Part shown: positions 5,926-61,633 of the stretch, piece after piece
Position numbering within the stretch: position 1 is the stretch's first letter
Layout of the letters: every line of letters starts with the position of its first letter
Source of the DNA: Escherichia phage ECp13
Sequence record: PP274704.1
Reading direction: 5' to 3' (one strand)
DNA length: 64,000 nucleotides
Made by a program: the position numbers and the translations under genes
The notes under the pieces: generated by a model
The model's input: only the letters and a program-made list of their open reading frames with translations
What the model was told of the DNA's origin: nothing
Databases searched by the model: none

Positions 5926-6749
5926 TGGCTATTTTTCAAATAATTAATGAAAGCACTCCCCAAGTTCCAAAGGTTAAGCAATCATTAAACGAAAAGAAAT
6001 GGATTCAGATAGGTCTTGAATACAGAAAGGCCAAAGCAAAAGGAATGACAGGAAAGCAATTTGCCGAAGAAAGAGGAATCAAATACTCTACGTTTACTTC
6101 AGCAATGTCAAAATATGCTTCAGGAATTAAAACAGCTGAAAAGATTCAAAAGCTTGAATCAAAACCAATGAATAAACTCAATAAGCAAGAAAGACAACTG
6201 CTTATGATAAATTCATTCAGGCAAACATTGCGTGATAAAATTCGTAATGAAGGTGCAGCAATTAATAATAAAACCAGAAAGTGGTTTGCTGAAACTATTA
6301 AGCAAGTAAAAGGACATAAGGTTGTTCGCCCGCAGCCTGGACGAATATATGCTTTTGCTTATGATGCTAAACACAAGGAAACTCTTCCTTACTGGGATAA
6401 ATTTCCTTTGATAATTTACCTTGGTTTAGGTAAACATAATTTAATGTACGGGTTGAACTTGCACTATATTCCACCTAAAGCTCGTCAGCAATTTTTAGAA
6501 GAGCTTTTAAAGCAATATTCAAATACACCTACTATTACTAATAAAACGAAATTAAAAATTGATTGGAGTCAAGTGAAAGGATTTAGGGGTGCAGACCAAA
6601 TGATTAAGGCATATATACCCGGTAATATTATGGGTAGCCTTGTTGAAATCGCCCCGAAAGACTGGGCGAACGTTGTGTTAATGCCACTTCAGCAGTTCGT
6701 TTCAAAAGGAAAACGTTTCTCTGCAAACAAAGTCTGGTCAAATATCTAA
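5925..6749 (+). CDS. 2: DNA end protector protein gp2
   Basis: 274 aa as T4 gp2; start overlaps gene 4 stop (TAATG). Confidence 0.85.
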
Positions 6750-19396: not shown

Positions 19397-19426
19397 GTTT
19401 ACTTTTCCTCTTGACTGTGGTATAAT
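19397..19426 (+). promoter_or_regulatory. early promoter
   Basis: -35 GTTTACT, 17 bp, -10 TATAAT. Confidence 0.6.
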
Positions 19427-19453
19427 TTTTCTATCAGTTAAGAGGAGAATAAC

Positions 19454-19915
19454 ATGACTATCAATACAGAAGTTTTTATCCGTCGAAATAAGCTTCGTCG
19501 TCACTTTGAGTCGGAGTTTCGTCAAATTAACAATGAGATTCGTGAGGCATCAAAAGCAGCAGGAGTCTCATCGTTTCATCTAAAATATTCTCAGCATCTT
19601 CTTGATCGTGCAATTCAACGGGAGATTGATGAGACATATGTTTTTGAATTATTCCACAAAATAAAAGACCATGTTTTAGAAGTTAATGAATTCCTGAGTA
19701 TGCCTCCGCGTCCTGATATTGACGAGGATTTTATTGATGGGGTTGAATATCGTCCTGGACGTTTAGAAATCACAGATGGAAATCTTTGGCTTGGATTTAC
19801 GGTTTGTAAACCTAATGCGAAGTTCAAAGACCCGTCGCTTCAATGTAGGATGGCAATTATCAACAGTCGTCGTTTACCAGGAAAGGCTTCTAAAGCAGTA
19901 ATTAAAACTCAATGA
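19454..19915 (+). CDS. regB: site-specific endoribonuclease RegB
   Basis: 153 aa; sequence and length match recalled T4 RegB. Confidence 0.88.
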   Translation: MTINTEVFIRRNKLRRHFESEFRQINNEIREASKAAGVSSFHLKYSQHLLDRAIQREIDETYVFELFHKIKDHVLEVNEFLSMPPRPDIDEDFIDGVEYRPGRLEITDGNLWLGFTVCKPNAKFKDPSLQCRMAIINSRRLPGKASKAVIKTQ

Positions 19916-19922
19916 GGTAAGC

Positions 19923-20468
19923 ATGAGAAAAGCACTACTCGCTGGTCTATTGGCCATTTCTATGATGGCACATAGCTCCGAGCATACTTTCAGTAATGTC
20001 CAACTCGATAACATGCGTTACGCATATCAATTCGGGGAACAATTTTCTAAGGATGGAAAATATAAAACACACAAAAATATCCACAAGAGCGGATTAGGTC
20101 ATATAATGGCTGCTATTTTATGGCAAGAAAGCTCTGCCGGAGTTAATTTAAAATCTAAACCAAAGCATCATGCCTACGGAATGTTCCAAAATTATTTGCC
20201 GACCATGCGAGCAAGAGTTAAGGAACTTGGTTATAATATGACCGATGCTGAAATAAAAAGAATGTTGAATAAACGGTCCAATTCAGCTTCCTGGGCGTAC
20301 ATTGAACTTTCTTATTGGTTAAATATACATAAGGGAGATATAAGAAAGGCGATATCCTCTTATAATTCGGGATGGAACGTTAAAGCAGGTTCTAAATATG
20401 CTTCTGAAGTCCTAGAAAAGGCTAATTACCTTAAAAATAATAAACTTTTGGAAATAGTAAATGACTAA
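19923..20468 (+). CDS. secreted lytic-transglycosylase-like (SLT-domain) protein
   Basis: N-terminal signal peptide; motif ESSAG...YGMFQ resembles the SLT catalytic ES...GLMQ. Confidence 0.55.
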   Translation: MRKALLAGLLAISMMAHSSEHTFSNVQLDNMRYAYQFGEQFSKDGKYKTHKNIHKSGLGHIMAAILWQESSAGVNLKSKPKHHAYGMFQNYLPTMRARVKELGYNMTDAEIKRMLNKRSNSASWAYIELSYWLNIHKGDIRKAISSYNSGWNVKAGSKYASEVLEKANYLKNNKLLEIVND

Positions 20469-20802
20469 AATTTTGGTTTTATGTATAGGATTAATTTCAT
20501 TTTCTGCGTTAGCAGATACATCATATACTGAAATTAGAGAGTATGTAAATCGTACTGCCGCGGATTATTGCGGGAAAAATAAAGCATGCCAAGCTGAATT
20601 TGCACAGAAATTAATATATGCATATAAAGACGGAGAAAGAGATAAATCAAGCAGATATAAAAATGATACATTGTTAAAACGATATGCTAAAAAATGGAAT
20701 ACCTTAGAATGTTCAGTTGCGGAGGAGAAAGATAAAGCCGCTTGTCATTCAATGGTTGACCGTTTGGTAGATTCTTATAATCGAGGATTGAGTACTAGAT
20801 GA
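20461..20802 (+). CDS. small secreted protein
   Basis: 113 aa; signal peptide MTKILVLCIGLISFSALA; several Cys. Confidence 0.5.
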   Translation: MTKILVLCIGLISFSALADTSYTEIREYVNRTAADYCGKNKACQAEFAQKLIYAYKDGERDKSSRYKNDTLLKRYAKKWNTLECSVAEEKDKAACHSMVDRLVDSYNRGLSTR

Positions 20803-21278
20803 TTGTAAAATATATCAAGGGCGATATTGTCGCCCTATTTCTTCAAGGTAATATTATTGCGCACGGGTGTAATTGCTTCCACACAATGGGCTCTGGCGTA
20901 GCGGGTCAATTAGCAAGAGCCTATCCCAAAATTTTAGAAATAGATAAAACTACTACCGAGTACGGTTCTCGCGATAAATTAGGCGATATGTCTGTTGTTT
21001 TTAAACATAGTCCTACGGGATTTGGTATATGCTATAATTTGTATACGCAATACGAACCGGGTCCTAATCTTGATTATGGTGCTTTAGTAAACTGCATGAT
21101 AGAATTAAATCTACAGGCAGAAACCCTTTTGTTTAAACCAGTAATTTACATTCCACGCATAGGTTGCGGTATTGCTGGTGGTGATTGGGACAAGGTTTCT
21201 AAATTAATCGACATGTTTACTCCTGATATTGATTTAATAGTGGTGGATTATGAAAGTACATTACCCGCATCCGTTTGA
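20799..21278 (+). CDS. macro domain protein (ADP-ribose binding / ADP-ribosyl hydrolase-like)
   Basis: 159 aa; KGDI...AHGCNC...MGSGVAG and later IGCGIAGG resemble macro-domain motifs. Confidence 0.65.
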   Translation: MIVKYIKGDIVALFLQGNIIAHGCNCFHTMGSGVAGQLARAYPKILEIDKTTTEYGSRDKLGDMSVVFKHSPTGFGICYNLYTQYEPGPNLDYGALVNCMIELNLQAETLLFKPVIYIPRIGCGIAGGDWDKVSKLIDMFTPDIDLIVVDYESTLPASV

Positions 21279-21462
21279 TCCTAAAAACAGAGTGGAAATT
21301 ATTCGTCAATGGGAACGCATTTGCCGTACTAAATGCCCAATTAATAGTCCACATGATGTAAATAAAGACTATATTGGAACATTCGTTGAATATACCTTTA
21401 TTGATAAGAAAGGTCGTAAACAGCACGTAGAAGAATATTGCTTAAAGGTTACATGGTTATGA
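21250..21462 (+). CDS. hypothetical small protein
   Basis: 70 aa; overlaps 3' end of macro gene in another frame. Confidence 0.4.
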   Translation: MKVHYPHPFDPKNRVEIIRQWERICRTKCPINSPHDVNKDYIGTFVEYTFIDKKGRKQHVEEYCLKVTWL

Positions 21463-21665
21463 GCCAAACTAGTATTCTTAAAAATGCACACTGCGAAAAG
21501 TGTGAATGGCCAGTTGTTTTTGCTTTATGTAATGATGAAATGGCTTGTGATTTCGATTATTGGTGCTATTGTTCTAATAAAGGATGCATCAATCATAAAG
21601 GTGAAGGATTTTATTCGGGATTTTATCCTTATCCTGATTTCGTTAAAGAAGGTAAACCGAAATGA
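21459..21665 (+). CDS. Cys-rich small protein (putative metal-binding)
   Basis: CEKCEWP...CNDEMACDFDYWCYCSNKGC. Confidence 0.45.
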   Translation: MSQTSILKNAHCEKCEWPVVFALCNDEMACDFDYWCYCSNKGCINHKGEGFYSGFYPYPDFVKEGKPK

Positions 21666-21835
21666 ATAGTTTTGAGTTACAATATGAAGTGTTACGTGAA
21701 CTTGATAATTTAATTGAACTCGCTGTTAATAAAGGTTTTGCCATTGGAATCGGTCAAAAAGATACTGATCATTTAACTATGGAAATATTTAAGCAAAAGC
21801 GAATTATTTTAAAACTCCTGGAAATTAATATATGA
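21662..21835 (+). CDS. hypothetical small protein
   Basis: 57-aa ORF, ATGA overlap with preceding and following ORFs (hand-translated). Confidence 0.35.
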   Translation: MNSFELQYEVLRELDNLIELAVNKGFAIGIGQKDTDHLTMEIFKQKRIILKLLEINI

Positions 21836-22017
21836 GTCTGAGTAAAGAACAAAAAGATAAATTGTTTGAGCTTATCCATGAACTTCTAGATGAGCATACA
21901 GAAGCAAACACCTTTTATGATGAATACGGTCCGCTATCTCCCGAACAGCAAGAAGAATTTGCTGATCGGTTTGATAAGAAAGAAAATGAATTAATAGCTT
22001 ATGTGAATACGCTTTAA
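21832..22017 (+). CDS. hypothetical small acidic protein
   Basis: 61 aa; translationally coupled. Confidence 0.45.
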   Translation: MSLSKEQKDKLFELIHELLDEHTEANTFYDEYGPLSPEQQEEFADRFDKKENELIAYVNTL

Positions 22018-22026
22018 GAAGGTGAT

Positions 22027-22608
22027 ATGGCGAGTTTAATTTTTACTTATGCAGCAATGAATGCTGGAAAATCTGCTTCTCTTTTGACTGCTGCGCATAA
22101 TTATAAAGAACGCGGAATGGGTGTATTAGTTCTTAAGCCTGCTATTGATACTCGCGATTCTGTCTGTGAAGTCGTTTCTCGCATTGGAATTAAACAGGAA
22201 GCGAATATTATTACGGATGATATGGATATTTTTGAGTTCTATAAATGGGCTGAAGCACAAAAAGATATTCATTGCGTATTTGTAGATGAAGCTCAGTTTT
22301 TAAAAACTGAACAGGTGCATCAATTAAGCCGAATTGTTGATACATATAATGTTCCTGTTATGGCTTATGGGCTAAGGACCGATTTCGCTGGAAAATTATT
22401 TGAAGGTTCTAAAGAACTTTTGGCGATTGCAGATAAACTTATTGAACTAAAAGCAGTTTGTCATTGCGGTAAAAAAGCGATTATGACAGCTCGATTAATG
22501 GAAGATGGAACACCAGTTAAAGAAGGCAATCAAATCTGTATTGGTGATGAAATTTATGTTTCTTTGTGTAGAAAACATTGGAATGAATTAACTAAAAAGC
22601 TCGGTTAG
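22027..22608 (+). CDS. tk: thymidine kinase
   Basis: 193 aa; P-loop AAMNAGKSASL; matches T4 Tk. Confidence 0.9.
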   Translation: MASLIFTYAAMNAGKSASLLTAAHNYKERGMGVLVLKPAIDTRDSVCEVVSRIGIKQEANIITDDMDIFEFYKWAEAQKDIHCVFVDEAQFLKTEQVHQLSRIVDTYNVPVMAYGLRTDFAGKLFEGSKELLAIADKLIELKAVCHCGKKAIMTARLMEDGTPVKEGNQICIGDEIYVSLCRKHWNELTKKLG

Positions 22609-22617
22609 TGCAAAAGT

Positions 22618-22625
22618 TATAAATA
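22618..22625 (+). promoter_or_regulatory. late promoter TATAAATA
   Basis: Exact TATAAATA upstream of 22651 and rI. Confidence 0.5.
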
Positions 22626-22650
22626 GGTTTATCTAACTAAAGGGGTATAT

Positions 22651-59773: not shown

Positions 59774-60067
59774 ATGAAAAAATTTATCTTTGCTGCAATT
59801 TTTGCTTTATCTTCTTGCGCTGCTCAGCCTGCTATGGCGGGTTATGACAAAGATTTGTGTGAATGGTCTATGACTGCAGATCAGACTGAAGTTGAAACTC
59901 AAATTGAAGCGGATATTATGAATATCGTTGAGCGTGATCATCCTGAAATGAAAGCTGAAGTGCAAAAACAACTTAAGTCTGGTGGTGTAATGCAGTATAA
60001 TTACGTTCTGTATTGCGATAAAAACTTTAATAATAAAAATATCATCGCTGAAGTGGTAGGTGAGTAA
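59774..60067 (+). CDS. sp: periplasmic spackle protein Sp
   Basis: 97 aa with signal peptide; matches recalled T4 Sp. Confidence 0.75.
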   Translation: MKKFIFAAIFALSSCAAQPAMAGYDKDLCEWSMTADQTEVETQIEADIMNIVERDHPEMKAEVQKQLKSGGVMQYNYVLYCDKNFNNKNIIAEVVGE

Positions 60068-60079
60068 TTAGAGGTTAGT

Positions 60080-60436
60080 ATGTACAGTTCTGAATTTTCA
60101 TATTTAAAAATGGAAAAAATTTCATACGATTTCATAGATGAAAAGATTTATTACAGCTTCCATGAACCGCGTTTTAATAGTGAGGTTGGGTTTATTGTAG
60201 TAAAAGACAATTTCATTTTAAAGATATATTCGGCATTAAAGGATTTTCATTACGAAAATATTAACCTAAAATTTGATAAAGAAAACGTTCGTAATTGTGC
60301 AGTAACAATTACAGGAAATAAAGGTACATGTGTTATGCTATCTGATGAAATTAATGATTTGTTAAATGATGTAGAAAAGGTTGCTATTCCATCTATTGAT
60401 GACCAAATTTTTAATGCTTTTATGAATAGAGGTTAA
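60080..60436 (+). CDS. hypothetical protein (61.2-like)
   Basis: 118 aa; RBS GAGG. Confidence 0.5.
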   Translation: MYSSEFSYLKMEKISYDFIDEKIYYSFHEPRFNSEVGFIVVKDNFILKIYSALKDFHYENINLKFDKENVRNCAVTITGNKGTCVMLSDEINDLLNDVEKVAIPSIDDQIFNAFMNRG

Positions 60437-60604: not shown

Positions 60605-61633
60605 ATGTCATCAATACCTTGGATTGATAATGAGTTTGCATACCGTGCATTAGCTCATTTACCTAAATTCACACAAGTAAATAATAGTTCAACTTTTAAA
60701 TTGCGGTTTAGATGCCCTGTTTGTGGAGATTCAAAAACCGACCAAAATAAAGCCCGTGGATGGTATTATGGTGATAATAATGAAGGAAATATTCATTGTT
60801 ATAACTGCAACTATCATGCACCAATCGGAATATATTTAAAGGAGTTTGAACCTGATTTATATCGTGAGTATATCTTTGAAATAAGAAAAGAAAAAGGTAA
60901 AAGTCGTCCAGTAGAAAAACCTAAAGAACTTCCTAAACAACCTGAGAAGAAAATAATTAAATCTCTTCCGTCATGCATTAGATTAGATAAACTGGCGGAA
61001 GACCATCCAATTATAAAATATGTAAAAGCTCGTTGTATTCCAAAGAATAAATGGAAATATCTTTGGTTTACAACCGAATGGCCTAAATTAGTTAATAGTA
61101 TAGCGCCAGGAACATATAAAAAGGAAATACCTGAGCCTCGTCTTGTTATTCCAATTTATAATGCTAACGGAAAAGCTGAGTCTTTTCAAGGACGTGCATT
61201 AAAGAAAGATGCTCCTCAAAAATATATCACCATCAAAGCTTATCCTGAGGCAACAAAAATTTATGGAGTTGAACGGGTTAAAGATGGTGATGTATATGTT
61301 CTAGAAGGACCTATAGATTCACTTTTTATTGAAAATGGTATAGCTATTACGGGCGGTCAATTAGACCTAGAAATTGTTCCATTTAAAGATAGACGTGTAT
61401 GGGTTTTAGATAATGAACCTCGTCATCCTGACACTATTAAACGAATGACTAAATTGGTCGATGCAGGAGAAAGGGTTATGTTTTGGGACAAATCTCCCTG
61501 GAAATCAAAAGATGTTAATGATATGATTAGAAAGGAAGGTGCAACCCCTAAACAAATTATGGAATATATGAAAAATAATATTGCCCAAGGGTTGATGGCT
61601 AAAATGCGGCTATCTAAATATGCTAAGATTTAA
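60605..61633 (+). CDS. 61: DNA primase gp61
   Basis: 342 aa; zinc ribbon CPVCGDS...CYNCNYH; matches T4 gp61. Confidence 0.92.
   Translation: MSSIPWIDNEFAYRALAHLPKFTQVNNSSTFKLRFRCPVCGDSKTDQNKARGWYYGDNNEGNIHCYNCNYHAPIGIYLKEFEPDLYREYIFEIRKEKGKSRPVEKPKELPKQPEKKIIKSLPSCIRLDKLAEDHPIIKYVKARCIPKNKWKYLWFTTEWPKLVNSIAPGTYKKEIPEPRLVIPIYNANGKAESFQGRALKKDAPQKYITIKAYPEATKIYGVERVKDGDVYVLEGPIDSLFIENGIAITGGQLDLEIVPFKDRRVWVLDNEPRHPDTIKRMTKLVDAGERVMFWDKSPWKSKDVNDMIRKEGATPKQIMEYMKNNIAQGLMAKMRLSKYAKI

Follow-up and report, generated by a model that had tools for sequence, protein, structure and literature searches.

What does a stand-alone macrodomain protein do for a T4-like phage, and does its position behind two genes for apparently exported proteins bear on that role? 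The question is raised by a locus in Escherichia phage ECp13 (PP274704.1), of which a stretch of 64,000 nt was analysed (hereafter, the window); by its sequence, the phage is a Tequatrovirus (T4-like). The ORF concerned is the positional and sequence ortholog of T4 tk.4, now also called adfM, and we consider it probable that its product undoes DarT2 thymidine ADP-ribosylation by means of a Gln-type active site.

Nucleotide comparison of positions 19400-22650 revealed 98% identity, over the full length, with many T4-like phages of Escherichia, Shigella and Yersinia. T4-style gene names for the plus strand were transferred from annotated relatives, giving the order regB, vs.1, vs, tk.4, tk.3, two small ORFs, tk.2, tk, rI.1, rI, and rI.-1 (Table 1). 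The arrangement regB-vs.1-vs-tk.4-tk.3 is the same as in T4, and it is also kept in Dhakavirus JS10 and Klebsiella phage EI. The frames of vs.1 and vs overlap by 8 nt, vs and tk.4 share an ATGA, and tk.4 and tk.3 overlap by 29 nt.

Table 1. Features of the regB-tk region of the ECp13 window and the evidence for each.
Feature	Coordinates	Strand	Evidence
Early-promoter-like site (TTTACT, 17 nt, TG-TATAAT), upstream of regB	19398-19426	+	Consensus scan, 10/12 matches, extended -10 TG
regB, site-specific endoribonuclease	19454-19915	+	Pfam REGB_T4 E=1.4e-68; 99.3% identity to T4 RegB
vs.1, 181 aa, signal-peptide-like N-terminus and SLT-type lytic-transglycosylase-like domain	19923-20468	+	Pfam SLT; 99.4% identity to T4 Vs.1
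vs, 113 aa, annotated valyl-tRNA synthetase modifier; hydrophobic leader, four invariant cysteines	20461-20802	+	PHROG 1256 E=5e-40
tk.4/adfM, 159-aa stand-alone macrodomain, TARG1/DarG/SCO6735 class, second allele type	20799-21278	+	
GC-rich hairpin followed by T-run, terminator-like, inside tk.4 codons 7-13	20818-20836	+	Scan
Divergent mosaic block over most of tk.4	20860-21280	+	Sliding-window nucleotide identity to T4
tk.3 (DUF7202), downstream neighbour of tk.4	21250-21462	+	Pfam DUF7202 E=4e-37; 90% identity to T4 Tk.3
Small ORF with Pfam Phage_zn_bind, 75 aa, absent from T4	21438-21665	+	
Small ORF, 57 aa, absent from T4	21662-21835	+	
tk	22027-22608	+	

The initial annotation had recognized macrodomain-like glycine-rich motifs in Tk.4, and these are present as described (AHGCNC at residues 21-26, MGSGVAG at 30-36, and IGCGIAGG at 121-128). 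The protein also exceeded the gathering threshold of the Pfam Macro family PF01661 (32 bits against 22, E=1.3e-7), with 116 of the 118 profile positions aligned. A different predicted fold, or loss of the glycine-rich loops among homologs, had been named as grounds for abandoning this assignment. The AlphaFold2 model, obtained from an alignment of 89 homologs (mean pLDDT 94), returned the macro fold, a three-layer alpha/beta/alpha arrangement around a central mixed sheet. The Gly-rich ADP-ribose/phosphate-binding loops were identified as G31-S-G33 and G122-C-G124-I-A-G-G128, in which G33, G122 and G124 are invariant in the 89 homologs and A126, G127 and G128 are conserved in at least 90% of them.

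Structure and sequence comparisons placed Tk.4 nearer to the ALC1-like class (TARG1/DarG/Poa1p/SCO6735) than to the MacroD, viral, PARG, or macroH2A types. The comparison with DarG and MacroD that the initial annotation had proposed was thereby settled in favor of the DarG/TARG1/SCO6735 class. DarG was the best PADLOC match of both the window protein (3.7e-7) and T4 Tk.4 (1.3e-9), as well as the best NCBIfam match of the former (8.4e-7). The NCBIfam DarG model NF048014, however, gave 28.6 bits against a cut-off of 250 bits, and only positions 2-142 of its 338 were matched. A family-profile search of the PDB retrieved BT1257 (7.7e-19), TARG1 (3.8e-16), SCO6735 (3.6e-15), and DarG (2e-11). No darT gene lies beside tk.4, whose neighbours are vs and tk.3. 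Since only the macrodomain part of DarG was matched and no darT is nearby, Tk.4 is best described, from its sequence, as an orphan antitoxin-like domain and not as a DarG. In line with this, Tk.4 differs from the macrodomains of DarG2 (Thermus aquaticus, Mycobacterium tuberculosis) in lacking the C-terminal DarT-binding domain and in carrying Gln in place of Lys80.

A search of 50,697 phage records found homologs of the Tk.4 family in about 2,850, belonging to many genera. Descent of the family from an intact DarTG operon was considered and set aside: neither the chromosomal homolog of Pelagimonas, beside which no DarT neighbour was found, nor a homolog on a metagenomic phage contig (L009) gave evidence for it. 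On that contig, from a large uncultured phage, about 4 kb separate the gene for a family macrodomain with 42% identity from one with an Acb5 Pfam match (1541-1888 and 6001-6447). The proximity of Acb5 (anti-CBASS) suggests that anti-defence genes are grouped there.

The active site was assigned from HMMER profile alignments, in which Gln84 of Tk.4 aligns with K84 of TARG1 and with a Gln of BT1257 that corresponds, in a BT1257-SCO6735 alignment, to Q85 of SCO6735. By this transitive alignment via BT1257, H22, N25, Q84, G122 and G124 of Tk.4 are equivalent to H24, N27, Q85, G126 and G128 of SCO6735, and all five are invariant in the 89 homologs. Equivalence of Gln84 to DarG K80 was deduced by transitivity together with a published structure-based superposition (PMC9411070). 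HMMER profiles were relied on instead of other alignments, of which a small MAFFT one puts the 'NMIGQ' of BT1257 and SCO6735 in an insertion, and MAFFT and hhalign ones set K78 of PhiKZ two residues off Gln84. The sequence of Tk.4 does not conform to the catalytic-Lys type of TARG1 and DarG (K84/K80); it conforms to the Gln type of SCO6735 (Streptomyces coelicolor) and BT1257 (Bacteroides), which are likewise orphan ALC1-like macrodomains and share about 25% identity with Tk.4. The Lys84/Asp125 dyad of TARG1 is represented by Gln84/Ala126. Conversely, the position of SCO6735 Lys34 is occupied by Ser32, no Lys is found at that of Lys89, and the loop following the Gln shows a 6-residue gap relative to BT1257, the extended mobile loop being missing. 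Since both Lys residues, which are DNA contacts in SCO6735, and the longer loop are missing while the equivalents of the catalytic residues are kept, Tk.4 combines a short loop with an active site of the Gln type.

The function of the T4 ortholog has been approached genetically. In a HIDEN-SEQ preprint of November 2025, a T4 transposon library on a DarTG2 host gave tk.4 as the sole significant hit, a clean tk.4 knockout rendered T4 sensitive to DarTG2, and the gene was renamed adfM (anti-DarT factor Macrodomain); the structural similarity of T4 Tk.4 to M. tuberculosis DarG was also pointed out, and removal of ADP-ribose by the T4 protein as an enzyme was said only to 'seem likely' (bioRxiv 10.1101/2025.11.20.689424). 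Previously, T4 without adfA and adfN had been found to remain DarTG2-resistant, and further factors were suggested by the authors (PMC11825919). Published ADP-ribosylhydrolase panels include the T4 NADAR protein; Tk.4 is absent from them.

Biochemical information comes from related proteins: cleavage of ADP-ribose from thymidine in ssDNA has been demonstrated for SCO6735, DarG, TARG1 and the chimallivirus AdfM. SCO6735 efficiently removes thymidine-linked ADP-ribose made by DarT, in cells as well as in vitro, and its presence saves cells from DarT toxicity; its Q85A and Q85E substitutions abolish activity, its Lys34 and longer mobile loop have been linked to its high activity on DNA, and thymidine de-ADP-ribosylation was named by the authors as the unifying function of the DarG/TARG1/SCO6735 macrodomain class (PMC9411070). 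Independent biochemical work on nucleus-forming phages demonstrated that one of their macrodomains, which resembles DarG2 and likewise bears the name AdfM (PhiKZ gp104), takes DarT2 modifications off DNA (PMC13309987). This chimallivirus protein is, like Tk.4, a phage-encoded stand-alone macrodomain countering DarTG2, and hhalign related the two with 96% probability. It belongs, however, to a separate lineage, has a Lys of the DarG type (Lys78) and enters the phage nucleus by import; orthology was rejected, as the BLASTP match spans 23 residues only and the Lys is retained in PhiKZ gp104.

Based on these data, we propose the following role for Tk.4. Host DarT2 would attach ADP-ribose to thymidines of phage ssDNA, thereby blocking replication. 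Tk.4, predicted to be expressed early (in contrast to SCO6735, which is induced by DNA damage), would act as an 'orphan antitoxin' related to the DarG2 macrodomain: it would bind ADP-ribose in its Gly-rich cleft and hydrolyse the ribose-thymine bond, restoring replicable DNA. Gln84 would stand in for K84 of TARG1 and K80 of DarG, with His22 and Asn25 retained as in the SCO6735 type; the enzymatic step and its substrate are those suggested by the homologs. The window and T4 proteins agree in position, size class, fold, glycine loops and the invariant H22/N25/Q84, and by analogy the window allele would do the same job as the T4 allele. The initial annotation had suggested that a phage macrodomain could reverse defensive ADP-ribosylation. 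The T4 genetics on DarTG2 and the placement in the DarG class support this suggestion, and the genetics, together with the chimallivirus AdfM biochemistry, mean that it was right in kind and already published. The anti-DarT role is on record for the T4 ortholog, and annotations have carried its macro (A1pp) domain for years: the domain, together with the SLT similarity of vs.1, was described in 2006 in a paper that cites older T4 studies (PMC1524935). The importance of tk.4 lies in showing how T-even phages withstand the ADP-ribosylation of DNA by DarTG2, and this has been pointed out before for T4. What goes beyond the published account is the 59%-identical allele cassette, the invariant Gln84 and a divergent adfA locus; the remaining interest lies in the specificity of the second common allele, in hydrolysis of the Gln type (SCO6735-like), and in the mosaic behaviour of anti-DarT loci.

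Some observations weigh against this proposal. The allele tested in T4 differs from that of the window at 41% of residues, and the Tk.4 family lacks the catalytic Lys of DarG/TARG1 and Asp125 of TARG1 as well as Lys34 and the longer loop of SCO6735. The first of these differences was mapped by comparison with T4. The two Tk.4 proteins share 59% identity over 155 aa (E=6e-71), although their flanks are 97-100% identical; T2 Tk.4 is 100% identical to that of T4. Protein identities to T4 for the other genes were 99% for regB, vs.1 and tk, 97% for vs and rI, and 90% for tk.3. In sliding windows, nucleotide identity to T4 was 95-100% up to the start of tk.4, fell to 47-80% at about 20860-21280, and was again 95-97% inside tk.3. 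The window tk.4 is thus a discrete mosaic cassette carrying a second allele type. Both types are common: among GenBank phage records, 312 carry the window type and 224 the T4 type at 90% identity or more. The divergence reaches the second phosphate-binding loop, which reads IGCGIAGGDW in the window protein and IGAGIGKGNW in T4 and T2.

A second, indel-rich divergent block extends over 21460-22060 in the same comparison. T2, RB32-like phages, and PhiZZ30 also have both of the small ORFs located there between tk.3 and tk.2; tk.2 has only 54% identity to T4, and T4 tk.1 is missing from the window. The small ORFs together with tk.2 can be read as a second hyperplastic block adjoining tk.4.

The 61.2/adfA locus was inspected as well. 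The ORF at 60080-60436, between sp (59774-60067) and gene 61 (60605-61633), encodes 118 aa, as against 208 aa in T4, with only 32% identity by tblastn; the flanking products are 96% (sp) and 98% (gp61) identical to those of T4. This other known anti-DarT locus of T-even phages is thus a divergent cassette in ECp13 too, so that tk.4/adfM and 61.2/adfA are both recombination cassettes in phages otherwise 97-100% identical. A possible reading, though in our opinion an unlikely one, is that the two tk.4 alleles are not interchangeable and that each is tuned to different DarT2-like or other ADP-ribosylating toxins. If so, tuning might operate through direct toxin binding or through the substrate range of the Gln site, as for the AdfA alleles, and the co-divergence of tk.4 and adfA in ECp13 would fit a coordinated anti-DarT repertoire.

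The same divergence bears on the possibility that Tk.4 protects mainly by binding and blocking DarT2, as an antitoxin mimic comparable to AdfA and AdfB whose alleles track DarT2 variants. A sharply bounded cassette, 59% identical within 97-100% identical flanks, is what a protein-protein arms race would be expected to produce, and neutralisation by AdfA is indeed allele-specific (PMC11825919). Moreover, catalytically dead SCO6735, DarG and TARG1 inhibit DarT in vitro, SCO6735 being the strongest (PMC9411070). On the other hand, the SCO6735-type catalytic residues are invariant in the 89 homologs, the most distant of which are about 40% identical, and this points to a conserved enzymatic function, and the 159 aa of Tk.4 do not include the DarT-binding C-terminal domain of DarG. 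Binding as the main mode of protection is consequently improbable. Since SCO6735 inhibits DarT through direct binding too (PMC9411070), protection by a hydrolytic Tk.4 may nevertheless not be purely enzymatic.

It is very improbable that Tk.4 is instead, as most GenBank records name it, a Poa1p-like ADP-ribose-1''-phosphate phosphatase that clears the by-product of Tpt1/KptA 2'-phosphotransferases and has no direct role in anti-defence. Many macrodomains hydrolyse Appr-1''-p weakly as a side reaction, and the RNA repair of T4 itself (Pnkp/Rnl1) is not known to produce 2'-phosphate junctions. The similarity to yeast Poa1p is real, this protein being the closest in sequence to the N-terminal half of Tk.4. 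Among the residues probed in Poa1p, H23 corresponds to H22 and S30 approximately to T29 (a conservative change), but F152 is replaced by Ala126; the F152A mutant of Poa1p is represented by structure 6lfu. The physiological substrates of Poa1p and human TARG1 differ from the one proposed here. This reading is kept as a minor rival only, because the sole phenotype found for T4 tk.4 is DarTG2 sensitivity (bioRxiv 10.1101/2025.11.20.689424). The 'phosphatase' label itself derives from transfer of a domain name rather than from an assay. T4 annotations have listed tk.4 as "A1pp phosphatase" since the 2000s, the RefSeq T4 entry reads 'phosphatase; contains A1pp phosphatase motif', and hundreds of GenBank records carry the label 'phosphatase' for this gene, which is probably misleading. 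Names across GenBank are inconsistent ('phosphatase', 'Poa1p-like', 'macro domain protein', 'hypothetical'); some records call vs.1 an 'endoribonuclease RegB domain-containing protein', and the T2 record AP018813 contains many plainly wrong product names.

Action on other conjugates is most improbable, whether Glu/Asp-linked protein ADP-ribose, phosphate-linked nucleic-acid ends, marks of the phage's own Alt/ModA/ModB enzymes, or ADP-ribose-derived immune signals such as Thoeris gcADPR: the products of Alt, ModA and ModB are linked through arginine, a bond that macrodomains of the TARG1 type are not known to cleave, SCO6735 is inactive on 2'-OH RNA-ADPr and has given conflicting results on phosphate-linked ends, the phenotype in the DarTG2 screen was specific, and we found no genetic or biochemical support for these substrates, including the degradation of ADP-ribose-derived signals that the initial annotation had also envisaged.

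Hydrolysis of DarT2-made adducts thus being the preferred role of Tk.4, the two genes that precede it were considered. The initial annotation had described both as encoding signal-peptide proteins, one with a lytic-transglycosylase-like ES...GMFQ motif, and both descriptions agree with our analyses. Vs.1 passed the Pfam SLT cut-off (23.4 bits against 21.3), and E69-S70, G86-M-F-Q89 and Y147-N-S-G150 are invariant in homologs with 69% identity; a PDB sequence search with Vs.1 returned no solved homolog. The N-termini of Vs.1 and Vs are basic and continue into a hydrophobic leader, so both proteins are probably exported. The leader of Vs ends in ALA, followed by D. Since its sequence drifts among homologs yet stays hydrophobic, and since C37, C43, C84 and C95 of the mature part are invariant in homologs with only 45% identity, the pattern is that expected for an exported disulfide-bonded protein. 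Searches for relatives of Vs in Pfam, NCBIfam and the PDB found none. T4 vs is conditionally required in minimal medium. The export signals of Vs seem to conflict with its annotation as a modifier of the cytoplasmic valyl-tRNA synthetase.

The adjacency of tk.4 to these two genes, which had been singled out, is real and conserved across the Tevenvirinae. As tk.4 was the only one of these genes to score in the screen on DarTG2, no functional significance of the arrangement is known; conserved order and overlapping frames were the only connections found among the three.

The sequence scan also picked up regulatory-type signals. The promoter-like site upstream of regB is the probable start of a regB-vs.1-vs-tk.4 transcription unit. 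The hairpin near the start of tk.4 has a perfect 8-bp stem (AGGGCGAT-ATT-GTCGCCCT) and is kept in T4, PhiZZ30 and JS10, in the last with a changed loop and an intact stem; it is lost in Klebsiella phage EI. In one GenBank record, a terminator is annotated under this region, and the hairpin could attenuate expression of tk.4 and of the genes downstream.
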